The notes under the pieces were generated by a model. That model saw only the letters and a list, made by a program, of their open reading frames with translations. It was not told where the DNA came from and searched no databases. Made by a program: the position numbers and the translations under genes. Positions 12,660 to 64,000 of a DNA stretch of 64,000 bases are shown here, piece after piece (positions within the stretch are counted from its first letter, which is position 1; each line of letters starts with the position of its first letter). Source of the stretch: a virus; the IMG/VR virus record IMGVR_UViG_3300045988_087270, positions 1 to 64,000 of that record; one strand, written 5' to 3'.

Positions 12660-12668
12660 CTCTAATAT

Positions 12669-12740: not shown

Positions 12741-12746
12741 CAAAAT

Positions 12747-12830: not shown

Positions 12831-12850
12831 CTAATTAAAAAATAAATAAT

Positions 12851-15981: not shown

Positions 15982-16182
15982 ATGGTTAAGTATAAAAAGT
16001 GTGGAGCATTACGAATTAGAATAGATGGTAGTAAATGTATTGTAGTAAATCTTAAATTACCATCTATTACTAGTCGTAGTACTTCATATTTAGATTTTTT
16101 AAGAGAAACTATTTTAGATAGTAATAAGCAAGAGTTTAATAATGCTGTAGAAACAATCTGTACTAGGATTAAATCTTTATAG
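15982..16182 (+). CDS. hypothetical protein
   Basis: 66 aa ORF. Confidence 0.35.
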   Translation: MVKYKKCGALRIRIDGSKCIVVNLKLPSITSRSTSYLDFLRETILDSNKQEFNNAVETICTRIKSL

Positions 16183-16212
16183 TATTATATTATCTTACTT
16201 ATCATAACGCAG

Positions 16213-16431
16213 ATGATTATTAGTAGAAAATTATTAATATTATTAAACATGTTTATTGATTTAACATTAGACAATAACAATATTAATAGAAGATATTTAA
16301 TAGCCGTAGATGATATTTCCTTAATAGAAGAGGTTGGTGAAAGCTCTTATGTTATATTAAAAGGTGGAAGCTGCTTATCTGTGAAGGAATCTATTGATTA
16401 TATAAAATCTTTATTAGACAATGTCAAATGA
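16213..16431 (+). CDS. hypothetical protein
   Basis: 72 aa ORF. Confidence 0.4.
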   Translation: MIISRKLLILLNMFIDLTLDNNNINRRYLIAVDDISLIEEVGESSYVILKGGSCLSVKESIDYIKSLLDNVK

Positions 16432-37623: not shown

Positions 37624-39363
37624 ATGTTATTTATGGTAATAAAGAGAGACGGAAGTAAAGAAGAGTTTAACAGAAACAAAATTAGAGATGCTGTATTAAA
37701 AGCTTTTGGAGTTACCCAAAATTCTAATAAGACAATGGACGAAGATATTTACAGAGCAGTTACTGAAATAACTAATTCTGTAGTAGAGACTGAAGATCAA
37801 TCTATTGAAGATATTCAAGACCAAATTGAAGAACTTTTAATGGATTTAGGATATCACGACGTAGCTAAAAAATATATTCTATATCGTAAAGAACGTGAAG
37901 ATATTAGGAATCATGCTACTAGAGATATTGAATTTATTCATAATTTTGTAAAATCTGATAATACTGCTAATGCTACTATTGACGACAATAGTAATGTAGG
38001 AACTAAAGGTATTGGAGTATTAAACGCTGAAATACATAAAGTCGATAATAAACTTACTAATACAGAATGGTGGGAAAGTTTTGTAAAGAAGAGAGACCCT
38101 AACTTTAATATAAAAGTTATGAGGAATGATTTTAAAACTATTTTATATCCTCATGATTCATCTTCTCAAGTAGGAGAACCATATTGTATGGCAGCTTCTA
38201 TGTATCCTTTCTTGTTGTCTGGATTAGAGAAATTAGGAGGTAAATCAGCAGTTCCAAAGAACCTTGATTCACTCTGTGGTATTTATGTAAATCTAAACTT
38301 TGCATTAGCTTCTGAAATTAAAGGAGCAGTAGCTACTCCTGAGTTTCTGATGTATATGGATTATTTCTGTAGAAAAGAATGGGGAAATAATTATTATCTT
38401 AAACCAAGTGTAAGAATAACTACAGATTACTGTATAAAACAGAAAACTATTGGTAGTCAAATTGATCAATATTTCCAACAAGTAACTTATTCTATTAATC
38501 AAATAGCTGGAGCTAGAGGAATGCAGTCTCCATTTACAAATTTTTCATTCTTCGATAAATATTTCTTTGAAGGTATGTTTGGAGAATTTGTATTTCCAGA
38601 TGGAACAAAGCCAGAATGGAATTCTACTAATTGGTTACAAAGACGTTATTTACATTGGTTAAACCAAGAAAGATTAAAATGTATTTTAACATACCCTGTA
38701 TGTAGCTATGCTTGCTTAACAGATAAGGAAGGTAATTTTAAAGATTTAGATACTTTCCATTTTATATGCAATGAATATGCTCAAGGAAATTCTTTCTTTA
38801 CTTATTTATCTCGTAGCGTAGATAGTTTAAGTTCATGTTGTCGTTTACAGAATGCAGTACAGGAAAATACATTTAATACTACTAATGGTCAAATAGGTGT
38901 AATGACTGGTAGTAAGAATGTCATCACTCTTAATTTAAATAGAATTATTCAGGATTGGCAGCATACTTGGTCTGATTATAAAGACCATATTGATGTTAAT
39001 ACCAATAGATGCTGTTTCCCAGTAGATTGGATTACACATAAAGATTTCCAAGAAGGAATTAAGAAATATATAGAAAATATTCTTGAAAGAGTTTATTTGT
39101 ATCAATATGCTTATAACGACTTAATGCATTGGTGCAAAGACCATCATTTATATGCTGCTTATGATGCTGGTTTTATTAATCTTGATAAGCAGTATTTAAC
39201 TATTGGAATTAATGGCTTAAATCAGGCTGCTGAATACTTAGGAATGGAATGTAATAATAATATTTATTATAAGACATTCTGTAGATTAATATTCAGTACC
39301 ATAAAAGAGCAGAATAAGAAACATAAAACTAAAACAGCTCAATTTAATACTGAACAAGTGCCT
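37624..39363 (+). CDS. nrdD: anaerobic ribonucleoside-triphosphate reductase NrdD, exon 1
   Basis: N-terminal ATP-cone (VIKRDGSKEEFNRNKIRDAVLKAF); large class III RNR body; ends ...FNTEQVP. The ORF continues only 10 codons into the intron before a stop. Confidence 0.7.
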
Positions 39364-40625
39364 AGACGTGTGGGCACTATAAATCTCTTTTAATTGACTC
39401 GAAACTCCTTAAATTAAGGACAACGAGGGGCAAGCAATAATTATTATAATTATGGGCAGCCTGAGAGACTAAATAAAGAGAATTTTAAATAAATTTATTT
39501 AAAGTATATAATAGTCCGAACTCTATGGTAACATAGAGAGAGAAAATCGAAGAATTTTCTCCGTTAATAATATAATATACAAAATAATTTTGATTCCCGA
39601 GGATGAGGGTCTATAATTGTTCTATAACAGTAAATATAAAAATTATAGTTTATGGAACAAAAATTAGACATTTTAAAAGTAAGAAATTTAGTAAAAGAAA
39701 AAAGAGTAAGAAAAAGAATACCAGATGAATGTACCTGTGAAGTATGCGGAAGTACTAAAGGAGAAGGGAAACTTAGAAGATTCAATGATTATATAGTTTG
39801 TGAAAAACACTATGACCAATTAAATAAATATGGTAAAATCACCGATACTTCTAAAAGAAAACACAAAAAGCCTTTAGAAAAATGTAGTATTTGTGGAGGT
39901 TTAAAAATGGCTTCTTTTGAAGGAACCCCATATTGTCGTAAACATTATATCCAAATAACTAGGCATGGGGTTATTAGAGATAGAACTATCTATGATGCTA
40001 ACGAATATGTTATTCATGAAGATTATGTAGAAGTAAAATGTTTTGATAAAAATGGTAATTATAAAGCTAGCACCAAAGTTGACTTAGAATTTTTACCTGA
40101 TATTAAAAAACATAAAATCTATATAAGAAAAAGTGGTATTAAAGAATATGCAGCATTTTCAGGAATAGAAAATGAAGAAGGTTCTGGTAAAAAATACTTT
40201 GTACATAGATATATAATGCATCTTCACGATAAAAAATATAATATTGATGAAGTAGTAGACCATATCAATGGGGATTCTTTAGATAATAGGATTTCAAATC
40301 TTAGAGTTTGTACTCAAAAAGAAAATTCTTATAATAACAGAGGAACAAAATTAAATCAAAAAATTAAAGGAGTAAACTGGCTTAAAGTAAATAAAAAATG
40401 GACGGCTAGAATAATGTACAATTATAAAAGTATACATCTTGGAAATTATTTTACTTATGCTGAAGCTGTATTAGCTAGAATAAAAAAAGAACAAGAATTA
40501 TTTGGTGAATATGGTCCTAACAAAGATTTATATTATATTATTAATCATCCTTCGCCAATAGAGGAATTAAATAAAATATTAGAAATTCCTTCTATAGAAG
40601 GAGCGTAACAGAATGGCAGAAAGCG
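39364..40625 (+). mobile_element. group I intron 1 of nrdD with HNH-AP2 endonuclease ORF
   Basis: P1: exon gtgcct pairs with IGS gggcac at 39373-39378. R-like gagagacta, S-like aagtatataatagtccgaac, P9 hairpin ctatggtaacatagag. Ends ...gtaacagaatG. Splicing gives FNTEQVP|AESASVKLY. Confidence 0.7.
39652..40608 (+). CDS. HNH-AP2 homing endonuclease (intron-encoded)
   Basis: HNH_3 motif VDHINGDSLDNRISNLRVCTQKEN, AP2-like KGVNWLKVNKKWTARI...; paralog of 42035-42805. Confidence 0.65.
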   Translation: MEQKLDILKVRNLVKEKRVRKRIPDECTCEVCGSTKGEGKLRRFNDYIVCEKHYDQLNKYGKITDTSKRKHKKPLEKCSICGGLKMASFEGTPYCRKHYIQITRHGVIRDRTIYDANEYVIHEDYVEVKCFDKNGNYKASTKVDLEFLPDIKKHKIYIRKSGIKEYAAFSGIENEEGSGKKYFVHRYIMHLHDKKYNIDEVVDHINGDSLDNRISNLRVCTQKENSYNNRGTKLNQKIKGVNWLKVNKKWTARIMYNYKSIHLGNYFTYAEAVLARIKKEQELFGEYGPNKDLYYIINHPSPIEELNKILEIPSIEGA

Positions 40626-40674
40626 CTTCAGTAAAACTTTATAATAGAGATAAGAAGGATGGGTAGACTCAATG
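40626..40674 (+). CDS. nrdD: NrdD exon 2 (49-nt mini-exon, AESASVKLYNRDKKDG)
   Basis: Matches the conserved class III RNR segment AES.S..(F/L)...DK; flanked by intron ends ...cagaatG and 5' exon-end U with IGS gcccat at 40684-40689. Confidence 0.6.
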
Positions 40675-41406
40675 CCCATGTAAAACTCTTACTGATTGAC
40701 TTGGAAGTCCGGTGTGGCGACAGGGCGCAAGCTGTAGCATTTTATATGTTACTTGCAGCGTGAACGACTGAGTGTAAGAGACTTATAAGGATAATATGTG
40801 AATATTGCTACTTATAGGTATGCGACAGTCTGAACTATACAAAGTATAGAGAGAATTCGAAGAAATTCTCCATTTATTTAGTGGGACAATTTTTTATTTT
40901 GACCCAGGGATAAAAATGGTTATATTAGTACCAGATAATAAAATATTAATTTAAACTAATTTTAATTGTATGGATACTAAAATTTGTAGCAAATGTGGAA
41001 GAGAACTTCCACTAGACCGTTTTGAATCTGGAAGAAATCAATGTAGAGATTGTCGTAATGCTAGACGCAGAAAATTAAGACAGGAGCATCCTGAAAAACA
41101 TAGATAGGAAGCTTCTAAAAGGCAAGAAGAGCAAACTAAATGGTTATATTCTCTAAAAAAGAAATGTTTAATATGTGGTGAAACTGAACCAGTATGTTTG
41201 GATTTTCATCATAAAGATCCTAATGAAAAAGATTTTACTATAGGTAAACATAGAAATAAAAGTAAAGAGAATTTAATGAAAGAGATAGAAAAATGTGTTT
41301 GTGTTTGCGCTAATTGTCATAGAAAAATTCATGCTGGTATTATTAATCTAGAAGATTACCTGAATAAATCATTTCCTCAAAGCCCAGAGGAAAGCGTAAC
41401 AGAATG
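40675..41406 (+). mobile_element. group I intron 2 of nrdD with HNH endonuclease ORF
   Basis: P1: exon atgggt pairs with gcccat. R-like gtgaacgactgag, S-like gcgacagtctgaac, P9-like hairpin ctatacaaagtatag. The 3' end gcgtaacagaatG is identical to intron 1. Confidence 0.65.
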
Positions 41407-41407
41407 A
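40970..41407 (+). CDS. HNH endonuclease with in-frame TAG at 41105-41107
   Basis: CSKCGRELPLDRF...CRDC zinc ribbon, then TAG, then CLICGE...CANCHRKIH HNH motif in the same frame. The terminal TGA uses the first nucleotide of exon 3. Confidence 0.55.
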
Positions 41408-41745
41408 CTGGGTTCCTACAGACACTAATCTGTATGCTAGTTATATATTTAAACCTAATGATACACATATAAGTATACTTGATAAAATTATACTTCATAG
41501 TTCTGAGTTCGCTGCTGATGAATTAGATGGAGGTTCTGCTTGTCATCTTAATTTATCTGAACATTTGAGTCAGAAACAATATGAGTATTTACTTAAATTT
41601 ATGGCTAAAGTAGGTTGTAAATATGCTACTTTTAATATTCCTAATTGTGAATGTGAAGAGTGCCATTTTATAGCAAAACAGCCGTTTAGTAAATGTCCTA
41701 AATGTGGCAGTACTCATGTAAGTCTATGGGATAGAATTATTGGGT
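41407..41745 (+). CDS. nrdD: NrdD exon 3 (Zn ribbon plus start of glycyl-radical motif, ends ...WDRIIG)
   Basis: YWVPTDTNLYASYIFKPND...CECEECHF...CPKCGSTHV..RIIG matches the NrdD C-terminus (T4-like CPKCGST...RITGY). Confidence 0.65.
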
Positions 41746-42809
41746 GAACGTAAACGCCCCACATAATAGTAATATTATGTAGTAAACGCAGAATATGCTG
41801 GAAACCCCTTAGAGCCTAAGTATACTTGAAATATTTTCAAGGATGAACAAGTCTTAGGATTGGGCAATCAGCAGACATATAAATTGTTAATTTATGTTAA
41901 AGTGTTAAGATTTATACAAGTCTTGTATATACTTAACATATATAAAATTTATGGGTCTCAGAGACTACCAATGCGCAACCTATGGGTTGATAGTATAGTC
42001 CACTCCCTTATTATTAACATAATTATTTAACAATATGAGAAAAATAACAGAAGAACGCTTTTGTGAAGTATGTGGAGTATCATCAAAATTTAAAAAAGTT
42101 AGTTTTAATAAACTTTCTGGAAAAATACTATGTGAAAAACATATGGGACAATTTAGAAGATTTGGGGAATTTAAAGATACTAATTCAAGAGGAGTATTTG
42201 ATGATAATGAAATTAGATTAAAAGATAATTTTGCGGAAATAGATACTTATGATTCTCATGGAAATATTATGGAGACATTTATTCTAGATATAGATGATGT
42301 TCCAAAATTAAAGGGTCATAAATGGAGAACTGTTTATAAAAATAATAAACCTTATTTATTTACAGGAAACCAGAAAAAAGAACGTATCTATTTTCATAGA
42401 TTGGTACTTCCTACTGATAAACAAGTTGACCATATTAGTGGAGATACTCATGATAATAGAAAATGTAATCTTAGAGAAGTAACTATCCAAGAAAATATGT
42501 TAAACCTACAAAAGAAATCTAATAATACTTCGGGTATTCGGGGGGTATCTTTTGATAAAAAACGAAATAGATGGAAAACTGATTTTACTTTTCAAAAACA
42601 ACGTTATTATTTAATGGATAGGAACCTAAAAGAAGAAGCCGTTTATCAAAGGTATCTTTGTGAGAAATTAGTATTAAAAAATTTTCGGAATGAAGCTAAT
42701 GATGCTCTGTATAATTCTTATATTGATAAAATTTCAGAGGAACGTAAAGCTGAAATAAAAAAGTATGTTATTAATAAATTAAATATCTCGAAAGAGAGGG
42801 TATAAAAGG
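41746..42809 (+). mobile_element. group I intron 3 of nrdD with HNH-AP2 endonuclease ORF
   Basis: R ctcagagactacc and S gatagtatagtcc boxes at ~41960-42000; intron ends in G. Splicing restores RIIG|YLTKISNWSAARQLE, the glycyl-radical consensus. Confidence 0.65.
42035..42805 (+). CDS. HNH-AP2 homing endonuclease (intron-encoded)
   Basis: VDHISGDTHDNRKCNLREVTIQENM HNH motif, GIRGVSFDKKRNRWKT AP2-like; paralog of 39652-40608. Confidence 0.65.
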   Translation: MRKITEERFCEVCGVSSKFKKVSFNKLSGKILCEKHMGQFRRFGEFKDTNSRGVFDDNEIRLKDNFAEIDTYDSHGNIMETFILDIDDVPKLKGHKWRTVYKNNKPYLFTGNQKKERIYFHRLVLPTDKQVDHISGDTHDNRKCNLREVTIQENMLNLQKKSNNTSGIRGVSFDKKRNRWKTDFTFQKQRYYLMDRNLKEEAVYQRYLCEKLVLKNFRNEANDALYNSYIDKISEERKAEIKKYVINKLNISKERV

Positions 42810-42910
42810 ATTTAACAAAGATTTCTAATTGGAGTGCTGCTAGACAACTAGAAGGTAGTACTAGAAGTAGAAAGAATAAATTAGAAATTAATATAGAATT
42901 AGCACAATGA
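42810..42910 (+). CDS. nrdD: NrdD exon 4 (C-terminal glycyl-radical tail)
   Basis: (G)YLTKISNWSAARQLEGSTRSRKNK...; the stop overlaps the thioredoxin start. Confidence 0.6.
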
Positions 42911-51593: not shown

Positions 51594-52799
51594 ATGACAA
51601 AAAAGGAAAAATTTATTACTCAAGCAATTGAAAAATTTGGTGGCAAATTTGATTATTCTAAAGTAACAGATATTAATAATAAAGAAATAGATAAAATTAC
51701 AATTATATGTCCTATACATGGTGAATTTGAGACTACTCCTAAGTCATTTTTAATATCTAAATATGGTTGTAAAAAATGTGCTAATCAACAAAAAGGAAAA
51801 CATTATCGAACAGATAAAAATAATTTAAGTTCTGTTGATACACATATTCCACATATAGAAAATCCTATTATATCAAAATCTTTAGTCGTGGGTACTGTAT
51901 ACTGTTTTATTAATAGTATTAATGGTAAAAAATATATTGGAGAAACAGTAAAAAAAGATTATACTGATAGATTTAATGAACATAGAAGTAAAAGTGAAAG
52001 AGGAGTAGTAACTTATTTCTATAATGCTATCAGAAAATATGGATGGGATGCTTTTAATAAATATATCCTATACCAAACTGAACCATATAAAGATACTGAA
52101 GAGAATAGAAAAAAATTAAATGATATTGTAAATAAAAAAGAGATTGAATTTATTAATAAATACAACACTACAAATCCTAATTTTGGCTATAATTTAACAA
52201 AAGGAGGAGACGGAGTTTTAGGTTACCATTTTTCTAAAGAAACCAGAGAAAAAATGAGTAAATCTCATCAAGGGGAAAAACATTGGAATTATGGTAAAAG
52301 AAATAAAGGTAAATCTAGAACAATTTTACAATTTGATTTAGATGGAAATTATATAGCAGAGTTTCCATCTATGGCAGAAATTACACGACAATTAGGATAT
52401 AGAGCTAATAATGTATGTAGATGTTGTAATAATTTAATAGATTCTTATATGGGATATATTTGGGTACGAAAAGATGATTATTATGAAGGCTATATTCAAA
52501 AATACAAATCAAGAGCAAAATGTAAATCTAATGATAAAGAAGTTTTACAATATACTTTTTTAGGAGATTATGTAGCTTCCTATATAAGTTGTGCAGAAGC
52601 AAAAAGAACTTTAAAAATGGGATATAGCCCTTCAGGAGCTGCTTCTGGAACTGATTTTTCAGCAGGAGGTTATATATGGATATATAAAAAAGATTTTACA
52701 GAAGATTTATTAAAAGAAAAATTAGAGCTTGTAAAAAGTAGCCGCAGTTATAAAAAAATTGTGAGTAATCTTAAACAATCTTGCTCTAATATACAATAA
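51594..52799 (+). CDS. GIY-YIG homing endonuclease (free-standing, Seg/I-TevI-like)
   Basis: GTVYCF...KKYIGET...RFNEH GIY-YIG core followed by NUMOD-like repeats (ETREKMSKSHQGEKHWNYGK). Confidence 0.6.
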   Translation: MTKKEKFITQAIEKFGGKFDYSKVTDINNKEIDKITIICPIHGEFETTPKSFLISKYGCKKCANQQKGKHYRTDKNNLSSVDTHIPHIENPIISKSLVVGTVYCFINSINGKKYIGETVKKDYTDRFNEHRSKSERGVVTYFYNAIRKYGWDAFNKYILYQTEPYKDTEENRKKLNDIVNKKEIEFINKYNTTNPNFGYNLTKGGDGVLGYHFSKETREKMSKSHQGEKHWNYGKRNKGKSRTILQFDLDGNYIAEFPSMAEITRQLGYRANNVCRCCNNLIDSYMGYIWVRKDDYYEGYIQKYKSRAKCKSNDKEVLQYTFLGDYVASYISCAEAKRTLKMGYSPSGAASGTDFSAGGYIWIYKKDFTEDLLKEKLELVKSSRSYKKIVSNLKQSCSNIQ

Positions 52800-52810
52800 T
52801 TTAATTATAT

Positions 52811-53500
52811 ATGACGAAAATTTGTGCACTAAGTGACCTACATGGTCATCTACCAAAAATTGAACCTTGTGAGTTAGTATTAATAGCAGGAGATATTGTT
52901 CCTTTAAATATTCAATTTGATAATACTGCATCTACCTTATGGTTTTTAGATGAGTTTACAAAATGGATTGATTCTCTTTCTTGTGATGAAGTTATTATGA
53001 TTGCAGGTAATCACGATAAACTTATAGAAAGAGCTTCTTTTATAATTCATGCAGTAGAATCTAAAACTGATTTTAAACTTACATATTTGTCAGGAACTAC
53101 TTATGAATATGTGGCTAGGAATCTTGAACATTATAAAATATATGGCTCTCCTTTCTGTCATAAGTTTGGTAACTGGGCATTTATGCAAAATGAAGAATGG
53201 TTAAAAGGTTATTATGATAATATTCCAGAAGATACTGATATAATTTTAACTCACGATACTCCAATGTTAGGAGATTTAGATTTATTACCTCCTAGTCAAT
53301 GGAATCCAAAAGCTATTCATGCTGGAGGTAGATCTTTAGCAAATGCTATTTGTAGAGTGCAGCCTAGATATGTATTTTGTGGGCATTTACATACTTGTAA
53401 AGATAAATATTTAAAATTAGATAATACAGAGATATATAACGTATCTATATTAGATAATGAATATAAAGAGATTTATAAACCATTATATTTAGACATCTAA
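52811..53500 (+). CDS. metallophosphoesterase
   Basis: SDLHGH, AGDIV, GNHD and GHLH motifs. Confidence 0.6.
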   Translation: MTKICALSDLHGHLPKIEPCELVLIAGDIVPLNIQFDNTASTLWFLDEFTKWIDSLSCDEVIMIAGNHDKLIERASFIIHAVESKTDFKLTYLSGTTYEYVARNLEHYKIYGSPFCHKFGNWAFMQNEEWLKGYYDNIPEDTDIILTHDTPMLGDLDLLPPSQWNPKAIHAGGRSLANAICRVQPRYVFCGHLHTCKDKYLKLDNTEIYNVSILDNEYKEIYKPLYLDI

Positions 53501-53501
53501 A

Positions 53502-53837
53502 ATGAAAGACGTAATAGCTAATGAAAAATTACCATACATTCCGGAGACCTTTACTCTTGGGTGTCATACCTTCAAAGTACAATTATATAAAGAATTATAC
53601 GACGATAATGACCCATTATATGGACAATTTGATTATGATGAACAGGTCATTAGAATCAGAATATTTAAAGATAATGGTAAGCCTTTATCAAGAGAATGTA
53701 TTCTTAATACATATTATCATGAACTTTTCCACACCTTTAACTATCTGTGGAATACTGGAAGCGATGAATCGCTTGCTAGTACTTTTGCAATATTAATGTG
53801 TGAATATGAAACAACTAGAAAATATGCCAAAAAGTAA
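53502..53837 (+). CDS. hypothetical protein with HExxH motif
   Basis: YYHELFH suggests a small metallopeptidase-like fold. The overlapping track ORF 53521-53796 in another frame is rejected. Confidence 0.4.
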   Translation: MKDVIANEKLPYIPETFTLGCHTFKVQLYKELYDDNDPLYGQFDYDEQVIRIRIFKDNGKPLSRECILNTYYHELFHTFNYLWNTGSDESLASTFAILMCEYETTRKYAKK

Positions 53838-54141
53838 AATACAAGTTCCAAAAGTAGTAACAGAGAGAAAACCTAAAACAAAATATGTTTCCCCTCTTAA
53901 AGATTATACAGTATCTTATGATGCGGTAATTAAGATTAAACAAACTAGTCTTCAGCCAATAATACCTTCTAAGGTTAGAGCAGATAAAAGAAAATTTGTA
54001 GGAAAACTTCCTGAAGAAGTTTCCAAACAATTAGCAAAACTTATATCAGAAGCTATTAAATTTTCATGTTCTTTTTGTACTGAAGTAATTTCTGTAGATA
54101 ATATAAAATTTGACCAAACTTTAATAAAAGAAGACCAATGA
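53800..54141 (+). CDS. hypothetical protein
   Basis: 113 aa. Confidence 0.4.
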   Translation: MNMKQLENMPKSKIQVPKVVTERKPKTKYVSPLKDYTVSYDAVIKIKQTSLQPIIPSKVRADKRKFVGKLPEEVSKQLAKLISEAIKFSCSFCTEVISVDNIKFDQTLIKEDQ

Positions 54142-54482
54142 TTTATTTTATTATAGCGGATACTAATTTCGGCTCTCATGTAGAACAAATATCTACTGAT
54201 TTTAATAAATTAAGAGAAAATTTTCCTGATGAGGTAATCTATACTACAGATTATATGAATGTAGATGATACTTTGTATAATATAATAGATTATTCCAATA
54301 TGCCATATAAACCTTATGATGGTACTGAGATAACTAATTGCTACTTATATCGTGATAAATTTTATGAGTGCGATGAAGATTTGCCAGAAGAATTAGATCC
54401 AGATGAATATATGTGTACCTATTATAGAACTTATACAAAAGGTATTCTAACTTCAACATGGCATAAAGATGGCTGGGTATAA
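54138..54482 (+). CDS. hypothetical protein
   Basis: 114 aa. Confidence 0.45.
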   Translation: MIYFIIADTNFGSHVEQISTDFNKLRENFPDEVIYTTDYMNVDDTLYNIIDYSNMPYKPYDGTEITNCYLYRDKFYECDEDLPEELDPDEYMCTYYRTYTKGILTSTWHKDGWV

Positions 54483-55293
54483 TTTAATCACAGACGATAG
54501 TGAAGCATTACAAGCTTATTTAAATAACATTACTCATTCTACTCCACTATCTTTAGAAGAAGAAAAAGAATGTGCTGATACTGGAAATTGGGAGAAATTA
54601 GTAAATGCTAATTTAAAGTTTGTAGTAACTGTAGCTAAAAAGTTTCAGAATAAAGGACTACCTTTATCTGATCTAATAGCTGAAGGAAATGTAGGTCTTA
54701 TTCATGCTAGCCACTTATATAAAAGTGAATATAATGTTAAATTTATAACTTATGCTGTATGGCATATAAATGAAGCTATTCGTAGAGCTATTCATTATAA
54801 AGCAGATACTGTTAGAGTTCCTGTAAGTCAAAAACTTACTTATAACAAAGCTGCTAAAGTTATAAATAAATATTGGCAAACTGAAGATAGACCTCCATCA
54901 GATGAAGAGTTAGAAGAAGCTACTGGTAAAACTATGAAACAAATTAATGGAGCTATAAATGCTAAAAAAATATGTATGTCTTTAGACACTCCATTAGGTA
55001 GTAATGATGATGACGGAGATTCTACTTTAGTAGATATTGTTAAAAATAATAATAGTCCTTTAGCTGACAATGATATAGAACAGTCTTATAAAACAAAAGT
55101 TATAAATAAAGTTTTAAATGGATTATCCAATAAGGAACATGATATAATAATGTTATGTTATGGATTTACTGGTCAGGAATATACTCCTGAGCTTATATCT
55201 CCTTTATTTGGATGTACGCCAGAACGTATAAGACAAATTAGAAAAGAGGCAATTAAAAAATTAAGAAAGAAAAAAATTCTTAAAAATGTTTAA
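54469..55293 (+). CDS. sigma-70 family RNA polymerase sigma factor
   Basis: Region 2 (KFQNKGLPLSDLIAEGNVGLIHA...FITYAVWHINEAIRRAI) and region 4 HTH (ISPLFGCTPERIRQIRKEAIKKLR). Confidence 0.65.
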   Translation: MAGYNLITDDSEALQAYLNNITHSTPLSLEEEKECADTGNWEKLVNANLKFVVTVAKKFQNKGLPLSDLIAEGNVGLIHASHLYKSEYNVKFITYAVWHINEAIRRAIHYKADTVRVPVSQKLTYNKAAKVINKYWQTEDRPPSDEELEEATGKTMKQINGAINAKKICMSLDTPLGSNDDDGDSTLVDIVKNNNSPLADNDIEQSYKTKVINKVLNGLSNKEHDIIMLCYGFTGQEYTPELISPLFGCTPERIRQIRKEAIKKLRKKKILKNV

Positions 55294-56711
55294 ATGATTT
55301 ATTTAGTTACCAAAGCTAAAACTTTATTTAAATCTTCTAAATATGAATGTATTTCCATAGAGAAAAGTAAAGAAATTATTAATTCTATGGGAAAAATTAG
55401 AGGGTTAGATACTGAAACTAGGGGATTAAATCCTCATACTAAAGCATTATTAACTGTTCAGATAGGTACTAAAGAAAATCAAGTAGTAATTGATTGTACT
55501 ACTATAAATATTTTGGAATATAAAAATATATTAGAAGATTCCGATATTTTATACATCTTAGCTAATGCTAAATTTGATACCCAATTCTTCTTTAAACATA
55601 ATATTATATTATCTAAAGTATGGGATGTAATGTTAGCTGAAAAAGTTAGATATTTGGGATATCCTAAAGGTAGTTTTCATGCTGACTTACAGACCCTTGA
55701 ATATAAGTATCTTAATAAACATATGGATAAAACTGTTAGGGGTAAAATTACTAAAGTTGGTCTAATTGAAGAAGTAATAGTTTATGCAGCTAATGATGTA
55801 GTAGATTTGGAAGATTTAATGAATGCTCAAATAAAAGCTTTAGAAAAAGAAGATTTGGTAAAGGCAGTACAATTAGAGAATAGATTTGTTATTCCATTGG
55901 CTTATATGGAATGGTGCGGAGTAAAATTAAACGTAGAAAAATGGAAAGCTAAAATGGTAAAAGATGCTAAACGTTTAAAAATTGCTCTAAATAAATTAAA
56001 TGATTGGGTAATAGAACATTATGGAAATGACTCTAGATTTACTAAGGTAGATTTACAAGGAGATTTATTTTCAGGATTTAATACTGACCCACAGTGTACT
56101 ATAAATTGGAATAGTGGAACTCAAGTAATTCCATTATTTAAAGCTATTGGAATAAATACTTCTACTATAGATAGTAAAACAAAGAAATTAAAAGATTCTG
56201 TAGATGCTAAATTATTAAAGCCTCAAGCTAAGGATTTTGAAATTCTTCCTATTTATCTAGATTATAAGGAAGCTCAAAAAGTATGTTCTACTTATGGACA
56301 AAACTGGTTAGACCAAATAAATCCAGAAACTGGTAGAGTATATACTAAGTTTAATCAGTTAGGTACTAATACTGCTAGAATATCTAGTGGCGGAAAAGAT
56401 AAAAATGCTAAAATAGAATATGTAAATTTTCTCAATCTTCCAGCAGACCCAGAAACTAGAAGTTGTTTTATTGCAGAGAAAGGTAATTCTTGGATTTCAA
56501 TAGACTACTCAGGGCAAGAAAGTTTCATTATGGCTTCTATTTCTAATGATAAAGCTTTAATACATGAATTAATGGAGGGAAGTGGGGATTTACACTCTCT
56601 AACTGCTTATATGAGTTATCCTGATCAAATACCAAGAGATACAAAAATAACAGAAATTAAAGAAAAATATCACCATCTTAGACAAGAAGCTAAAGGCATA
56701 GAATTTGCCAT
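55294..56711 (+). CDS. family A DNA polymerase, exon 1
   Basis: 3'-5' exo motifs (LDTETRGL, YAANDV), pol motif A IDYSGQESF, DLHSLTA, motif B start RQEAKGIEFAI; the ORF stops 2 codons into the intron. Confidence 0.7.
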
Positions 56712-56983
56712 TAATCCTTAAATTATTACAATTTTGTGGCACTCTATGGAAACATAGAGAATAAAAAATTGGGTGAATTGCAGGAACTTAAGGAAAATCT
56801 GCAGCCAAGCCAACCTTTAACAAAGTTGGAAGGTTCAACGACTAACTCTTGAAACTTCGTAAGAAGAATATAATAGAGACACGAGCGCCCAACACCTAAA
56901 CTATAAAGTAAGGTGATGAAATAGTCTAGCCTATATGGTAACATATAGAGCCTTGGATAAAGAGCCAAGGGTTAATACACGCG
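56712..56983 (+). mobile_element. ORF-less group I intron (td/IA2-like) in polA
   Basis: P1: exon gccat pairs with IGS gtggc at 56736-56740. P gaattgcagg, Q aatctgcagccaag, R gttcaacgactaac, S aaatagtctagcc, P9 hairpin ctatatggtaacatatag. Ends in G. Splicing gives AKGIEFAI|NYGGDF. Confidence 0.75.
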
Positions 56984-57452
56984 AAATTATGGTGGTGATT
57001 TTAATACTATTCACCGAAACAAAGGCATCTCTATAGAGGAAGCTAAAAAGATATATGAAAATTATATGTCAGGTTTCTCAGGATTAGCTAAATATCAAGA
57101 ATATTGTAGGAAAATAGTCATGGAAAAAGGCTATATACTTCTAAATCCTATAAGCAAATATAGAGCACATATATATGATTTTGAGTCTCTACGTTCAATG
57201 CAAGAAAAAATGCAAGATAGAGAATTTTGGAAGTATTATAGAGAAATGAAACGAGAATCTCCTAATTGTGATACAGTACAAGAAGTACGAGATTTCTTTA
57301 AGAAAAAAGGTGAGTGTGAAAGGAATAGTATAAATTATAGAATACAGCATACTGGAGCTTTATGTTATAAAGTAAGTATGATTTATTTCTTTAGATGGAT
57401 AGTAGAAAATAATCTTTTTAATAAGGTTTTAATTACTATTACCCCCTACGAT
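56984..57452 (+). CDS. family A DNA polymerase, exon 2
   Basis: Completes motif B (NYGG...EEAKKIYENYMSGFSGLAKY) and continues to ...KVLITITPYD. Confidence 0.65.
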
Positions 57453-58317
57453 AAATAATCTTGTCGTAGTAAAACGATGTTAATTGCTTGGAACTCCTAA
57501 AGATTTAATTACTAAATTATTGAAATAATAAACCAGTAAAAATATTAAATATGATTTTACCTCAGTTAAAAGAAATGGACAATAAGCAGCTTTATAATTT
57601 TACAAGAGAACAAACTCAAGTATTTCTAACAGGACTGCTAGGTGATGGATGTATATCTACTACAAATAGTGGTAGTTATATTTATACTACAAATTGTAAG
57701 CATCTTGAATATTTAGAATTTAAAAAGAAATTATTAGGTAAAGGAAATATTAGACTCCAAGAAAGAAATGGCTATAGTCAAACTCCTATATATACTATGT
57801 ATGGGGGAGCTTACCCAGAATTATTTGAGTTTAAAGAATTTACTGTTCAAGATGTTATTGAAAACTTAGATTTACTTGGGTTAGCATTATGGTTTTACGA
57901 TGATGGTAGCCTTCATAAAAGAGATTTACATTATAATTTAAATACTCAAAAGTTCCCAAAGTATATACAAGAAGGAATTTTTATTCCATGGTTTGATTCC
58001 TTAGGCATTAAAGCTAATTTAAGACATGATACAAAAAGAGGAAAAGAATTGTATTATTTAGGAATTAATAAATATGAAGGAGCTAATATTATTAGTGAAA
58101 TACTATCACGTTATCCATTAGATTGTTACTCTTATAAATTATGGAGTTCAGAGACTATCCTGAAATGGAGTAAGCTGCAAGAGCAGGTGAAAAGCATCGA
58201 TGAAAATCTTACTAATAGGCAATTAGCTTATAAGTGGAGGTTTTTATAAGATATAGTCCGAACCTATATGAAAGTATAGGAGAATATATGGAATCGATAT
58301 ATTCGTAACAATATATG
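57453..58317 (+). mobile_element. group I intron in polA with LAGLIDADG ORF
   Basis: P1: exon acgat pairs with IGS gtcgt at 57464-57468. 3' S box aagatatagtccgaacc and P9 hairpin cctatatgaaagtatagg (GAAA loop). Ends ...tatatG. Splicing gives ...TPYD|EINCEAP.... Confidence 0.65.
57551..58249 (+). CDS. LAGLIDADG homing endonuclease (intron-encoded)
   Basis: LTGLLGDGCIS and LALWFYDDGSL dodecapeptide motifs. Confidence 0.7.
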   Translation: MILPQLKEMDNKQLYNFTREQTQVFLTGLLGDGCISTTNSGSYIYTTNCKHLEYLEFKKKLLGKGNIRLQERNGYSQTPIYTMYGGAYPELFEFKEFTVQDVIENLDLLGLALWFYDDGSLHKRDLHYNLNTQKFPKYIQEGIFIPWFDSLGIKANLRHDTKRGKELYYLGINKYEGANIISEILSRYPLDCYSYKLWSSETILKWSKLQEQVKSIDENLTNRQLAYKWRFL

Positions 58318-58479
58318 GAGATTAATTGCGAAGCACCTATAGAAATAGCTGAAAAAGTAGCTACTAGACTTCACGCTATCATGGTTAGAGCTGGAGAGAT
58401 ATTCTGTACTAGATGTAAGTTAGATGCAGATATTTCTAGATGTAAAGATGGAACACTACCTAATTACTGGATTCATTAA
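58318..58479 (+). CDS. family A DNA polymerase, exon 3 (C-terminus)
   Basis: EINCEAPIEIAEKVATRLHAIMVRAGE...GTLPNYWIH* aligns to the PolI/T7 C-terminal region ending in the conserved His. Confidence 0.6.
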   Translation, partial: EINCEAPIEIAEKVATRLHAIMVRAGEIFCTRCKLDADISRCKDGTLPNYWIH

Positions 58480-58480
58480 A

Positions 58481-58714
58481 ATGGAAATAACTTACATTGG
58501 TAACGACTATTCACTATATATCGACGGCAAAGAATTCGTTGATATAGATTACGACAAACAAAAAGAAATTTGTCATAAATTAGTAGATAAAGTTTCCGAA
58601 GGAGTTTTACAAAGATTTGTAGAAATTGCTTGCACTGGAATGGGTGAGTATGAACAATTAGATTATTGTGAAACTCATGGAGAATTTGTTGATAAATATG
58701 TAATAAACATATGA
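58481..58714 (+). CDS. hypothetical protein
   Basis: Internal ATG (MEITYIGNDY...) of track ORF 58424-58714, which otherwise overlaps polA exon 3. Confidence 0.4.
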   Translation: MEITYIGNDYSLYIDGKEFVDIDYDKQKEICHKLVDKVSEGVLQRFVEIACTGMGEYEQLDYCETHGEFVDKYVINI

Positions 58715-58856
58715 CATTTATTATAACTAATAAAGATGGTTCTAGAACTCAATATTCTAACCATTATGAAGAAGATGACGAAATGGAAGTAGATGCTGCA
58801 TGGGATGATGTATATGCAACATTCCCTGAAGCTGATTATATTGAGCGATTTTAATT

Positions 58857-59072
58857 ATGACTAGTAATTCACCAACGTTGATGCAATCTGAAGAGAGATT
58901 TTTAGATAATCTTAACACAGATATTCCTTTGGAAGAAAAAGATTATACAATATGTTTTTGTATAAGTAAACAAATTTCTACAACTGATATTGAAGATATT
59001 TGTAGATCTTTACAAAATCAATTTTTAGATGAAGGGTGGAGCATTGATGATTTTGATTTAGAAGAAGAATGA
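58857..59072 (+). CDS. acidic hypothetical protein
   Basis: 71 aa. Confidence 0.4.
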   Translation: MTSNSPTLMQSEERFLDNLNTDIPLEEKDYTICFCISKQISTTDIEDICRSLQNQFLDEGWSIDDFDLEEE

Positions 59073-59151
59073 GTAAATTAATTATATGTATAAGTATACC
59101 TACATTAGGTATCCAATAATTTTATAATAATTATAAAGATATATCCTTTAT

Positions 59152-59946
59152 ATGGTAGATAATTTTAATATATTTGCTCCTTGGTTTGATAATCTCTCAG
59201 ACCAAGGAGATTTTTACTTTGTACAAGTAATACAAAGAAAAAAAGAATGTAATATAGGTAGTAATAATAATGTAATTAAAGATTATCATTTCTTTGATAA
59301 AAAATCTTTTTTAAATAAGAAAGAAGAAATAATTACATTATGTAAAACTTTTAATGCTAGAGCATATTTTTGGATAAACCCTAGAAATTGTAAACAAGTA
59401 CAATACGAGATAATTAGAGAGGCTCTAGAAGCTATAGAATGTAATTCTAAAAAGTTATTTAAATGTGTCTCTAAATCAATAGGTCAGAGAAGAAATACTG
59501 ATTATAAATCTAAATGGATATTAGATTTTGATACTAAAGATTGGAATCTTATAAATAACTATTTAGATTTAGTTAGGGAATGTAGACCTTACACAAATAT
59601 AATATTATACTATGTTCCTACAGTAAATGGCATTCATGTAATTACTCTGGGATTTGACTTAGAGCAATTTAAACAAAAAGTAGCTATAGCTAAACTAGAT
59701 AATATAGATATACACAAAGATAATCCATCAGTATTATATTATGATGATATTACAAGAGCTTCTGATAATTTAAATAATACTGTAAAAATTGATAAGGATA
59801 CTCTTTTAAAGTTAATTAGAAACTCTGAGAAATTATCAACATTAGAAGAGTGGGGAGTAGATAATTGGATAAATTATGGTGAAGCCATGCAATATTTGGA
59901 TGATTCACCTGATGAAGTGTTACTTAAACAATATTTAGATGATTGA
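59152..59946 (+). CDS. hypothetical protein
   Basis: 264 aa. Confidence 0.5.
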   Translation: MVDNFNIFAPWFDNLSDQGDFYFVQVIQRKKECNIGSNNNVIKDYHFFDKKSFLNKKEEIITLCKTFNARAYFWINPRNCKQVQYEIIREALEAIECNSKKLFKCVSKSIGQRRNTDYKSKWILDFDTKDWNLINNYLDLVRECRPYTNIILYYVPTVNGIHVITLGFDLEQFKQKVAIAKLDNIDIHKDNPSVLYYDDITRASDNLNNTVKIDKDTLLKLIRNSEKLSTLEEWGVDNWINYGEAMQYLDDSPDEVLLKQYLDD

Positions 59947-60454
59947 TTTTGAAACTAAAAAAGTACTGTTCATTGATTTGGACAGTACTTTAATTAAGAC
60001 TATCTCAGGTAAAACATTTCCTGAAGACATTAGTGATTTTAGAATACAACTTCCTGTATTAAATAAAATAATAGAGAAGATGCCTAATCTTAAAAGATTC
60101 CTTATAGTAACTAATCAAGGTGGTTTAAAAAGTACTACAGCCGAGTGGGATTTTAAAGCTAAATTATATTCTATAGAGTATTTTTGTAATACGTATTTAG
60201 ATAATAGGCTTTCTAATTATAGCTGTTCTGATAGTATGTATTGTTCTTCTATGGACAAAACAAATCCCTATAGAAAACCCAATACTGCAATGCTAGAAAG
60301 TTTATCTGGAGAATGGAATATAAAATCTAAAGATGAATGTATTATGATAGGAGATGCTTCTGGCAAACCTGGAGATTTTTCAGATTCAGATAAGAAGTGT
60401 GCTGAGAATTTTGGCATAGACTATATTGATATTAGAGACTTTTTAGAATTATGA
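59939..60454 (+). CDS. HAD-family phosphatase (polynucleotide 3'-phosphatase-like)
   Basis: DxDxT motif FIDLDSTLIKT, VTNQGG, MIGDASGKPGD. Confidence 0.55.
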   Translation: MIDFETKKVLFIDLDSTLIKTISGKTFPEDISDFRIQLPVLNKIIEKMPNLKRFLIVTNQGGLKSTTAEWDFKAKLYSIEYFCNTYLDNRLSNYSCSDSMYCSSMDKTNPYRKPNTAMLESLSGEWNIKSKDECIMIGDASGKPGDFSDSDKKCAENFGIDYIDIRDFLEL

Positions 60455-60825
60455 AATTAAGATTAGACGAATATTATTATATACTTAATGCTGATTATGG
60501 ATTAGAAGAAATAGAAGACTATATGCCTGAGGATATAGCAGACAAATATTTAGAATTTTGTAAATCCCATAATTCAGATGAAGTAGATGATTATTTAAAA
60601 AGATTATATTCGTATATACAGGTAATAAATCTAGAATATACTATTCTTGATATTGATTCAGAAAAAGGTTATACTGAATACAAGGCAATTATAAAAGTTA
60701 ATAATAAGTATTATTCTTTTAATTATTATCAAAGTCCATATTGGAATTTTGAAGACGAGGTAGATGCAGATAAAGATTTAATAGAAGTATTTCCAAAAGA
60801 AGTAACTACAGTTATATATGTATAA
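60451..60825 (+). CDS. hypothetical protein
   Basis: 124 aa. Confidence 0.45.
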   Translation: MKLRLDEYYYILNADYGLEEIEDYMPEDIADKYLEFCKSHNSDEVDDYLKRLYSYIQVINLEYTILDIDSEKGYTEYKAIIKVNNKYYSFNYYQSPYWNFEDEVDADKDLIEVFPKEVTTVIYV

Positions 60826-60867
60826 GAGATAAAAATATTGTTAGACAATTTTTTAAAACGACAAAAA

Positions 60868-61314
60868 ATGAAGAAAATTTTTATTTTTCTAGTAGCTATG
60901 GCGTGCTTAACGTCTTGTAAAGAACAGTTTTCTAATGGAGAACGTGTTGGTACTGTAACTAAGTTTAGTAAAGCAGGAGTTTTCTGGGATTCATGGGATG
61001 GGTTACTTAATGTTACCCAAACTGGTATGAATTCTAGTGGAGAACCATTTGCTTTTTCAATGGATAATGATCGTAATGACCAACAAAAACTTATTAATAC
61101 TTTAATTAAAGCTCAGGTAGAAGGTTGGAAAGTTAAGATTAAATATCACCAAGTTTGGGGATGCAAAAATGTGTTTAAAAATAGAGGAGAGAGTGATTAC
61201 TTTGTAGATGATGTAATTATTCTTGATAAGAACTTCTCAAAAATTGGAGATATTGTAAAGGGAACTAATAAAACAGCTCCTCATGACACATTATATGTAA
61301 AAATAGTTAAGTAA
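60868..61314 (+). CDS. lipoprotein
   Basis: MKKIFIFLVAMACLTSC signal with lipobox; the track ORF starts 30 nt upstream. Confidence 0.5.
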   Translation: MKKIFIFLVAMACLTSCKEQFSNGERVGTVTKFSKAGVFWDSWDGLLNVTQTGMNSSGEPFAFSMDNDRNDQQKLINTLIKAQVEGWKVKIKYHQVWGCKNVFKNRGESDYFVDDVIILDKNFSKIGDIVKGTNKTAPHDTLYVKIVK

Positions 61315-61315
61315 T

Positions 61316-62191
61316 ATGAAATTAATTAAACAAAGTTTTCAACTTGTAGACCAAAAAGGTTTTACTTTAAGAGACATTTATAAACATATTGAGTATTGTG
61401 CCCGTATTAGTTACAAGAGTCAAGAAAAGATTACAGATACCTCTTATAAGAAGTTTGTAATTATGTTAAAATCTAGAGGGCACGATAGACCTCTTGAGTT
61501 TGGAACTGTGCATCTTAAAATGAGCAGTCCCCAATTTGATGCTTTACAAATGCTTCTTATTAAAAATAAAGTTTATAATGATTGCTGGATTAAATATAAC
61601 GTTATAGATACAGAGAAGGAAAGCATTTGTTATATAACTACTAATTATAGATACTATATGGAATTATGTAGATATGACAGGGGAGTTTCTGAATACTTAG
61701 ATCCCTCTGATAATCCACTCTATCCTAGGAGATATACAGTTCACATGATTCTTGATCGTGGAGTTATGGATGAGTTCAGAACTCACGTAGGATTGTCTCA
61801 CTTAGCTGAAAGCACGCGGTATTGCAACTATTCTAAAGACAAGTTTAATAATGAGGTTACTTTTGTTATTCCAAGTTGGTGTAACTCTCTCATAGAGGGG
61901 TCTAAACAAGAATACTCTCCATTTGAAATAAATGGGGATGAAGTGGAATTTATGAATGCGTTACAAAACGCCCAAAATTCCTACTTATCTCTTTTAAAGA
62001 TGGGTTGGACTCCTCAGCAAGCTCGTTCTGTACTTCCTCTAGGAATTAAGTCTGAACTTATTTCCTGTGGATTTGAAGACGCATGGAAGAATTTCTTCTA
62101 TCGTAGAGATGCCCCTGATGCCCATCCTATGGCACAAGAAATAGCTAAACCAATGCACCAAAAATTCATTGAATTAATTAAAATGGGATGA
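61316..62191 (+). CDS. thyX: flavin-dependent thymidylate synthase ThyX
   Basis: ThyX motif RTHVGLSHLAESTRY (RHRxxSxxxxSxR). Confidence 0.7.
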   Translation: MKLIKQSFQLVDQKGFTLRDIYKHIEYCARISYKSQEKITDTSYKKFVIMLKSRGHDRPLEFGTVHLKMSSPQFDALQMLLIKNKVYNDCWIKYNVIDTEKESICYITTNYRYYMELCRYDRGVSEYLDPSDNPLYPRRYTVHMILDRGVMDEFRTHVGLSHLAESTRYCNYSKDKFNNEVTFVIPSWCNSLIEGSKQEYSPFEINGDEVEFMNALQNAQNSYLSLLKMGWTPQQARSVLPLGIKSELISCGFEDAWKNFFYRRDAPDAHPMAQEIAKPMHQKFIELIKMG

Positions 62192-62430
62192 TTATCTTAA
62201 TTATAATATACATAGCATCAATTATAGGGGCTATAATAAGTATTAGATACGATGATATCATATTTAATAAGAAACCTTGGACATTATTTTTAGTATTTTT
62301 TCCAGGAGCTAATACAGGTCTATTTATATTAGAATTATTTTTCCAATTATCATTATTGTTTGATATGATTACACAATTAGATTTAGATGAAAAATTTTAT
62401 AAATTAATTAGATTAGGACGAAAAGAATGA
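62188..62430 (+). CDS. small membrane protein
   Basis: Two TM helices. Confidence 0.4.
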   Translation: MIILIIIYIASIIGAIISIRYDDIIFNKKPWTLFLVFFPGANTGLFILELFFQLSLLFDMITQLDLDEKFYKLIRLGRKE

Positions 62431-62636
62431 ACCAATTAATTCCTGTTAGTTTATCATATAAAATAAGACCTTTTGATGCCATGGATGGACTATCTTCGGA
62501 CGCATCCTATAACATTCTGCCAGAATTCAATGGAGTTACTGCGGTATATTCTAATAGAAAAACTAATATAGATATTTTAGGAGCTAATAAAAATAGCTTC
62601 GATAAATCTTTAACAATATTTTATATTAATGTATAG
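62427..62636 (+). CDS. hypothetical protein
   Basis: 69 aa. Confidence 0.35.
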   Translation: MNQLIPVSLSYKIRPFDAMDGLSSDASYNILPEFNGVTAVYSNRKTNIDILGANKNSFDKSLTIFYINV

Positions 62637-63711
62637 TAATACAATACAAGCTAGAATAGAAGCAACATTAAAAGAATTATATAAAGTACATGATACTGTA
62701 TTTAAACCAGCAGTTATGTATGCTATGTATAGTAATATACGTGCTTATTTTATAATATTAGATAAGAATAATAAAGCACAACTTTTAAATGCTTTTAATC
62801 CTAGAGTAGTAAAACATAAAGATAAATTAGAATTAGACAATGTAACTGAAAGTCCTCGTATTTATCAAGAATATTTTATAAAAGAATTTTCTGATAATGT
62901 AGATTATGGTATTTATATTGACGAAGATGAAATAGGTCATTATTTTACAGCATATGGAGAAGTTCAAATATTCAGTACTTATATTCAAGTAAATTATAAC
63001 GATTATAAGCAGGCTGAAAAACTTTTAGAATTTGTAAAACCATTACCTGAGGATACTGATAAAATTGTAACTTACGATTTAGTGGTATCTACTAATACAG
63101 GATTTAGTACTACAGAATGTACAAGTTCTAGAAATATTGATATTGATGTAAAAAAGAACTACAATGATGATTTACCTTATGATAAATATAAAGAATTCTG
63201 TGAAAAAGACGGTTCTGGTTTAGCTCTAATGTACGGAATTGCTGGAAGTGGAAAGACGAGCCTCATAAAAAAGCTTATTTATGACTGTTCTGATACTAAT
63301 TTCTATATAATGGATTTTTCTATGTTACAAAATATAGTTTCAGGACAATTTTTATCTTTTCTTTTAGGATTAAAGAATGCTGTAATCATAATGGAAGATT
63401 GTGAGTATATATTAAAACGTAGAGATACTCATGAGAATCCGCTGATTAATTCTCTTTTAAATATTACAGATGGATTAGTTGGTGATGCTTTAAATATACG
63501 ATTTTTATGTACTTTTAACGCAGCATTAACAGATATAGATGAGGCTTTATTAAGACCTGGAAGACTCAAAGTAAAATATGAGTTTAAAGCCTTAAATAAA
63601 GATAAAACTAAAGCTATATGTGGAGATGATAAAGCTGAAACTTTAGCAGAAATTTATAACAGAGATATAATAGATTTCAATAAAAAAGAAAAAAGAAAGA
63701 TTGGTTTTTAA
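62629..63711 (+). CDS. AAA ATPase
   Basis: Walker A GIAGSGKTS, Walker B IIMEDCEYIL, second region of homology ALLRPGRLKVKYEF. Confidence 0.6.
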   Translation: MYSNTIQARIEATLKELYKVHDTVFKPAVMYAMYSNIRAYFIILDKNNKAQLLNAFNPRVVKHKDKLELDNVTESPRIYQEYFIKEFSDNVDYGIYIDEDEIGHYFTAYGEVQIFSTYIQVNYNDYKQAEKLLEFVKPLPEDTDKIVTYDLVVSTNTGFSTTECTSSRNIDIDVKKNYNDDLPYDKYKEFCEKDGSGLALMYGIAGSGKTSLIKKLIYDCSDTNFYIMDFSMLQNIVSGQFLSFLLGLKNAVIIMEDCEYILKRRDTHENPLINSLLNITDGLVGDALNIRFLCTFNAALTDIDEALLRPGRLKVKYEFKALNKDKTKAICGDDKAETLAEIYNRDIIDFNKKEKRKIGF

Positions 63712-63910
63712 ATTATCAGATAAGGAGTGTCAAGCAGCTAAAGAGTTTATAAAAGAACATAATAAGCAGTGTGACACTCCTTATTCAGGAGCTAATGGTT
63801 GTCCAAAATTTAGTTATATATTTTCACCTTTTGGACTAGGTACTTTTGTAGGAATAAGATGTAATGTTTGTAAGAATGAAAAGGATATAACTGATATTGA
63901 TACATGGTAA
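63701..63910 (+). CDS. small Cys-rich hypothetical protein
   Basis: 69 aa with CxxC pairs. Confidence 0.4.
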   Translation: MVFKLSDKECQAAKEFIKEHNKQCDTPYSGANGCPKFSYIFSPFGLGTFVGIRCNVCKNEKDITDIDTW

Positions 63911-64000
63911 TAATAGGAATTTCTGGAAAAGCTACTTCAGGTAAAGACACTATAGCTAATTATTATAGTAGATTTAGTAAAGCGCATTGTACTACTTTAC

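Follow-up and report, generated by a model that had tools for sequence, protein, structure and literature searches.

The window analysed here, a stretch of 64,000 nucleotides of viral DNA, has 29% G+C and carries all its genes, which belong to replication and nucleotide metabolism, on the plus strand. An open reading frame for a predicted HNH (PacI-like) homing endonuclease lies at 40970–41407 (+) and comprises 145 codons plus a stop. On translation, the frame yields 145 sense positions, is interrupted once by an internal stop (TAG) and ends in TGA, and the gene is intact if TAG is read as glutamine. The TAG is codon 46 (41105–41107, +); translation confirmed these coordinates and the description of the reading frame, both given in an earlier note on this DNA. 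Four cysteines in a CxxC...CxxC arrangement near the N-terminus (C6, C9, C25 and C28) precede the TAG. Downstream of it follow C66 and C69, a DFHH motif with H80 and H81, and CANCHRKIH with C113, N115, C116, H117 and H121. Codon 46 itself falls in a predicted long helix (residues 41–62) that connects the HNH core with the first Cys4 site. The first in-frame ATG beyond it corresponds to residue 103, and an ORF initiating with TTG at 41198 would be without C66 and C69. A separate C-terminal protein is therefore implausible, and judged from its sequence ORF 40970–41407 is a single gene, not two. Upstream of it is a sigma-70-like site (TTGACC-16-TATATT, 40899–40926), which we rejected as a promoter signal because such sites are not enriched compared with shuffled sequence.

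A mobile group I intron in nrdD

The endonuclease ORF fills the 3' part of the second of three introns in nrdD. Exon 1 (37624–39363, +) encodes the ATP-cone plus NRDD, and exon 2 (40616–40664, +) consists of the 49 nt between introns 1 and 2. Exon 3 (41407–41745, +) has the A of the endonuclease stop TGA as its first base, and exon 4 (42810–42910, +) completes the glycyl-radical end, ...DRIIG/YLTKISNW... (the slash marking the junction). Joined together, these four exons encode a NrdD of 742 aa without a stop, which carries the ATP-cone, a C-terminal CxxC...CxxC and the sequence ...DRIIGYL. Intron 1 (39364–40615, +) belongs to the same intron family as intron 2 and contains an HNH_3 endonuclease ORF (39652–40608), and the third intron (41746–42809, +) contains an HNH_3/AP2 endonuclease ORF (42035–42805); neither ORF has a TAG. 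Each of the three nrdD group I introns thus has its own HNH-type endonuclease, with introns 1 and 2 only 49 nt apart.

Intron 2 (40665–41406, +) measures 742 nt, and its ribozyme core (40665–40885, +) can be folded into P1 with a U.G pair, P3, P4–P6, a P7 pseudoknot, P8 and P9. Its junctions read GGGT/AGAC...AATG/ACTG, in keeping with all three introns, for which the preceding exon ends in T and the intron in G. Introns 1 and 2 of nrdD in the window were aligned with five homologous introns, and the aligned sequences have P1 (with the U.G pair), a long-range P3, P4–P6, the P7 pseudoknot, P8 and P9 in common. In this alignment 95.5% of the cells are paired, compared with 36–49% in slid-partner controls, and compensatory changes occur in 26 of the 46 pairs, the P7 pseudoknot included. 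P7 is found as GACUG/CAGUC, GACUA/UAGUC and GAGUA/UACUC, and P1 covaries between GGGU/GCCC and GGAU/GUCC. A search of the intron with the Rfam model RF00028 gave no match at the gathering threshold or at E <= 1, a miss that we put down to the weak coverage of phage-type introns by this model. On the strength of exon continuity and covariation, we identify 40665–41406 as a group I intron that is predicted to self-splice. A 125-nt portion of the intron 1 ribozyme core (39415–39539) shows 81% identity to sequence of Prevotella Lak megaphages.

The stop codon of the endonuclease (TGA, 41405–41407) straddles the 3' splice site, with TG intronic and A exonic. This arrangement is found family-wide, in that the proteins end in ...SVTE and are followed by the same exon sequence. 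Excised intron RNA would consequently carry an endonuclease ORF without a stop codon, and a ribosome translating that ORF to its end would cover the splice site.

Comparison with a close relative shows that the intron can be present or absent. MT835492, a 121.6-kb human-gut record, is collinear with the window and ~93% identical to it, and is without both 39364–40615 and 40665–41406, that is, introns 1 and 2 together with the endonuclease ORF. The intronless nrdD site in MT835492 reads ...GATAAAGCTGATGGTTATTGGATTCCTACAGAC..., and the same site is occupied in the sister contig L004 and in IMG/VR copies, where exon sequence ending in ...GG(G/A)T is followed by ACTGGGTT.... Presence and absence at one conserved nrdD site indicate that intron 2 and its endonuclease are mobile. 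From its sequence relatives, this intron and endonuclease family appears to be common to very different gut phages. MT835492 has a different insertion of ~1 kb further upstream, in nrdD exon 1.

The endonuclease family and codon 46

The 145-residue translation is matched by 246 database proteins, many of them single proteins of 145 aa with 100% query coverage. When 48 and 70 family members were aligned, the Cys and HH...N...CxxCH...H residues proved to vary little or not at all, whether N- or C-terminal to codon 46; C66, C69, D78, H80, H81, C113, N115, C116 and H121 are invariant in the 70 sequences, and H117 is almost so. The best solved-structure match of the family profile is PacI (PDB 3LDY; E 3.9e-4, residues 4–90 against 2–87). 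This alignment crosses codon 46 and treats both halves of the protein as one fold. An AlphaFold model of P0001, a protein 94% identical to that of the window, has a pLDDT of 90.7 and places codon 46 within a continuous helix of residues 41–62. Foldseek searches against the PDB returned nothing significant, and PacI and other HNH enzymes ranked first (E 0.11, TM 0.27). The window protein has no Pfam match, and HNH_2 matched 14 of 48 homologues weakly (best E 4.5e-4, below the curated cutoff). Taken together, the profile and motif evidence makes the product of 40970–41407 a probable PacI-like HNH homing endonuclease, for which DNA cleavage is predicted. A C-terminal homologue of the endonuclease (P0056) is found on contigs of up to 552 kb.

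In the closest database homologues, the gene caller had put Q at codon 46, where the underlying DNA reads TAG. Codon 46 is TAG in four separate assemblies, namely the window and the sister copies L004, L005 and L218. The first of these sisters is a 126-kb Logan contig with an endonuclease 94% identical to that of the window. In two further copies, L216 and L217, the codon is CAA and thus encodes glutamine. Extra TAGs occur at codons 38, 39, 52 and 65 in L005, L217 and L218, and at 24, 27, 95, 107 and 128 in L010 and L012. Several of these fall where other members have Q, with conserved Q positions at 24, 38 and 52. The close sister copies have no internal TAA or TGA. Across the matched regions of 76 distinct IMG/VR copies we counted 24 TAG, 4 TAA and 1 TGA, some of them close to where the match ends on the C-terminal side, so that they could be true stops; the distant family members L026 and L036 have TAA at Gln positions.

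The region downstream of the TAG has evolved as coding sequence. Over codons 47–145, the window and L005 differ by 17 synonymous and 8 non-synonymous changes (dN/dS 0.08), and L004 and L005 by 18 and 10 (dN/dS 0.10); both members of each pair carry TAG at codon 46. Among the four diverged copies with this TAG, dS is ~0.4. Since the TAG has been kept across copies and the sequence 3' of it is under purifying selection, neither a pseudogene nor an assembly error fits.

TAG in the early and late genes and the suppressor tRNA

Late genes of the same genome could be inspected in L006 (ENA ERZ27261028 k119_26407, 175,361 bp), which has 1 mismatch in 11,372 bases to window positions 52629–64000 and is therefore the same genome. 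Just past the end of the window, three minus-strand genes of 1551, 773 and >600 codons contain 46, 40 and 34 in-frame TAGs, next to 24+5, 17+3 and 7+2 CAA+CAG codons, respectively, and 0–1 TAA or TGA. TAG makes up 3–5.5% of the codons in the sampled late genes, which is more than CAA and CAG combined and amounts to about two thirds of the glutamine codons. The corresponding part of MT835492 has the same character: between 62 and 120 kb, ORF coverage collapses under code 11 and recovers when TAG is treated as sense, and ~25 minus-strand ORFs with ~600 TAGs are found at 62–121 kb. The sampled late genes have 116 TAGs in common with their orthologues in MT835492; of 11 TAGs that differ, 8 are exchanged for CAG or CAA. 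These codon patterns identify a block-wise TAG-to-Gln recoding (genetic code 15) of the phage's late genes. PHROG searches with the late proteins gave one weak major-head match only and no placement in Crassvirales, and one early protein matched many unrelated myoviruses.

In the early block, TAG is used very differently. We considered ~104 early ORFs with 18,424 codons, among them 363 CAA and 143 CAG, and a TAG flanked by coding sequence on both sides was found only in three homing endonuclease genes. Besides 40970–41407, these are a LAGLIDADG endonuclease gene (5128–6237, +) and a second HNH endonuclease gene (13889–14605, +). The former has one TAG (5890–5892), which lies within its Pfam LAGLIDADG_3 match and is conserved in MT835492. 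The latter adjoins the tRNA cluster, has four TAGs (13958, 13970, 14432 and 14516) and is absent from MT835492. All six internal stops of the three interrupted genes are TAG, with no internal TAA, TGA or frameshift, an outcome with P ~1.6e-5 under random nonsense mutation (3.6e-4 counting transitions only). The window's other five homing endonuclease genes, of eight in total, are without TAG. Further in-frame TAG candidates at 1048–1803, 1764–2531, 4390–4704 and 15982–16431 were rejected, since they represent neighbouring genes, or non-coding frames, that happen to be in the same frame. The tRNA cluster of MT835492 (our L001) holds an inserted GIY-YIG endonuclease gene (12551–13201) that the window lacks; it contains four TAGs, and its Pfam GIY-YIG match covers two of these. 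In the window, the gene for a family A DNA polymerase (55294–58714) appears to be fragmented into pieces of 475, 130 and 96 aa around a LAGLIDADG_2 endonuclease gene (57551–58249), and the sister contig L007 has a different LAGLIDADG insertion at the DNA polymerase locus as well as an intein in Thy1.

At least ten early genes use TAG as their true stop, which implies that TAG decoding is not fully efficient at all times. The early genes 1051–1383, 1800–2027 and 15982–16182 end in TAG, with a further 82–167 codons before a TAA or TGA is reached; late decoding of TAG, if it occurs, would lengthen their products or join them to that of the gene downstream. We also considered back-up stops near the early TAG stops and dismissed them, as the distance to the next TAA or TGA looks no shorter than after genes ending in TAA or TGA.

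Searches with ARAGORN and Rfam for a suppressor tRNA were negative both for the window and for the 121.6 kb of MT835492. A 'tRNA-Pyl(cta)' called by relaxed ARAGORN at MT835492 c88679–88765 falls within a long ORF and was discarded as false, and a tRNA that ARAGORN had missed at MT835492 12157–12221 is a tRNA-Thr and no suppressor. By walking through IMG/VR relatives with 90–98% identical late proteins, we reached a tRNA(CUA) gene of 72 nt. It is intergenic, is encoded on the same strand as the late genes and has a score of 63.6 bits with the tRNA model of Rfam. Among 15 loci in these relatives, the gene is intact in 8 (for example L186:1622–1693), holds an insert of ~220 nt in 5 (L188:~887–1109, L204, L207, L209 and L212) and one of ~1 kb in 2 (~1003 nt; L189:~184–1186 and L194). 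The inserts separate the tRNA halves GGTTAGCACAGAAGACTCT and AAATCTTTTAGYCNGGGTTCGAATCC between anticodon bases 35 and 36, follow a U and end in G. The 1-kb insert matches the nrdD-intron profile (E ~1e-10), and the ~220-nt insert gave no match to this profile. Split genes of this kind are missed by tRNA finders, and they may explain 'missing' suppressors in recoded phages. This intron in the anticodon of the suppressor tRNA, seen in relatives only, is a more unusual observation than the recoded endonuclease. Just 3' of the intact tRNA(CUA), the sequence L186:1694–1760 (GAATAGCGTAAGTAGAAACCTCCACGTGGTGCTATTCGG...) is conserved. It has no match in Rfam and may be an element for processing, of the kind of the theta/HDV-like ribozymes that have been reported beside phage suppressor tRNAs (PMC10879173). 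We infer that a suppressor is also present in the window's own genome and is switched on late.

The earlier note had held that an N-terminal zinc ribbon and the CANCHRKIH HNH motif lie in one frame with only a TAG between them, and that two other homing endonuclease genes repeat this pattern. The single frame is borne out by full-length homologues, by a TAG that is conserved and followed by sequence under purifying selection, and by the TAG-rich late genes, and the repetition holds as well, with one TAG in 5128–6237 and four in 13889–14605. The N-terminal motif is likewise present, though 'zinc ribbon' is a less apt name for it, since it is best seen as one part, the first Cys4 site, of a compact PacI-like HNH nuclease and less as a domain of its own.

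Proposed timing of the endonuclease and comparison with known systems

We consider it very probable that the window comes from a human-gut phage of ~175 kb with genetic code 15, whose nrdD group I intron carries an intact mobile HNH endonuclease with TAG as a glutamine codon at position 46, and that the full protein can be made once the suppressor is active. In this scheme the window would represent the early block, read in the standard code, and TAG would be read as glutamine in the late genes. As long as only host release factor 1 reads UAG, translation would stop after 45 residues and leave a Cys4 peptide without the nuclease core. The complete nuclease of 145 aa would be produced once a tRNA(CUA) acts as amber suppressor. 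Because TAG-46 lies inside the endonuclease gene, the full-length enzyme is possible only while TAG is decoded, and the best-supported reading of TAG-46 is a glutamine codon that is usable only while the phage's amber suppressor is active. Going by the layout of early and late genes and by published models, the full-length endonuclease is presumably made late in infection.

Other explanations for the TAG have to be weighed against this reading. The gene could be a decaying pseudogene that acquired a nonsense mutation after the intron had become fixed, with the endonuclease no longer made. Homing endonucleases do decay, and the TAA codons at Gln positions of the distant members L026 and L036 would agree with this, but the four copies sharing TAG-46 are diverged (dS ~0.4) and remain under selection downstream (dN/dS 0.08–0.10). 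Random decay is equally hard to reconcile with six out of six internal stops being TAG in three unrelated endonuclease genes without a single frameshift (P ~1.6e-5), and with hundreds of TAGs in the late genes of the same genome. We regard the pseudogene explanation as largely refuted and its probability as very small. A leaky stop without any code switch, in which host near-cognate tRNAs would read through UAG at a constant low rate and supply a trickle of nuclease, is improbable too, if somewhat less so. Low expression would suit a toxic nuclease, and neither the window nor MT835492 yielded a suppressor tRNA. However, late structural genes with 30–128 TAGs each cannot be made by leaky readthrough, so efficient TAG decoding must exist in this phage, and close relatives do encode a tRNA(CUA).

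The TAG might also separate two products by design. The 45-residue Cys4 peptide would then function early, for instance bound to the homing site or to the intron RNA, and the full nuclease would follow late. All four cysteines of the first zinc site lie 5' of the TAG, and TAG-46 is kept in four copies, as such a design would have it. Yet codon 46 is CAA in two close copies and other copies have their TAGs elsewhere (24, 27, 38, 39, 52, 65 and so on), so that a fixed point of truncation is not conserved. In the PacI-like match, moreover, the two halves make up a single fold. We give this explanation as little credence as the pseudogene.

If TAG-46 is a glutamine codon read by a late suppressor, its late timing may be useful to the intron or the phage, and could equally well be just tolerated. 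A delay might, for example, prevent ribosomes from covering the 3' splice site during the time in which nrdD has to be spliced. Taken further, the TAGs in the endonuclease genes would be a selected timing device superimposed on a second, intron-based switch: nucleases would appear only after the suppressor, the splice site would stay free of ribosomes, and the suppressor itself would depend on self-splicing. We think this extended model unlikely, though clearly less so than the three alternatives above. Since five of the eight endonuclease genes are without TAG and TAG positions vary between copies, TAG is not required for a homing endonuclease in this phage. The absent TAGs and the drifting positions favour a tolerated synonymous codon over a selected timer. 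Selfish nucleases in early genes carry a codon of the late phase, and the code switch therefore also controls when these nucleases can be made. For annotation, 40970–41407, 5128–6237 and 13889–14605 should be entered as intact genes under code 15 and not as pseudogenes or fragments, and nrdD as a four-exon gene.

The proposed timing is reminiscent of the T4 endonucleases I-TevI, I-TevII and I-TevIII, whose expression is delayed by late promoters and a sequestered ribosome-binding site. I-TevII is carried by T4 nrdD/sunY, and both there and here an intron ORF resides in a gene of nucleotide metabolism, with nuclease synthesis uncoupled from, and later than, that of the host gene, as we propose for the present case. 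Unlike in T4, the delay would stem from the genetic code and not from a promoter or RNA structure. On the protein level, the window endonuclease resembles PacI, an HNH restriction enzyme of 142 aa that has two Cys4 zinc sites, in its similar length and in the two CxxC...CxxC sites flanking the HH motif. In contrast to PacI, it is intron-encoded and mobile and lies outside any restriction system.

Block-wise recoding of late genes from TAG to glutamine is established for gut phages (Ivanova 2014; Yutin 2021, PMC7886860; Borges et al., 10.1101/2021.08.26.457843; Peters 2022, PMC9523058). The phage described here resembles these code-15 phages in its standard-code early block, its TAG-rich late block on the opposite strand and its origin from the human gut, as well as in the exchange of TAG with CAA/CAG and the tRNA(CUA) in its lineage. 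Endonucleases bearing the recoded codon have precedents among TGA-recoded phages. In the 'Agate' phages, as set out in section 8 of the preprint by Borges et al. (10.1101/2021.08.26.457843), the group I intron endonuclease of an early gene preferentially carries the recoded codon, and that section proposes that it is made only late. The polB of a Zeta crAss-like phage contains intron ORFs with TGA (Yutin 2021, Fig. 7c, PMC7886860). The endonuclease at 40970–41407 is the TAG counterpart of these TGA cases, and the kind of system is therefore already known. In all of them an intron endonuclease within an early, standard-code gene bears the stop codon that the phage has reassigned, with the proposed consequence that the nuclease appears only after the code switch. 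What differs is the codon, here TAG (Gln) and not TGA (Trp), and the host gene, which is nrdD. The directness of the evidence is unusual in the present case, with TAG and CAA found at the same codon and selection acting downstream of it. Moreover, the pattern extends over three homing endonuclease families (HNH, LAGLIDADG and the GIY-YIG of a relative), but within the window it is confined to three of the eight homing endonuclease genes.
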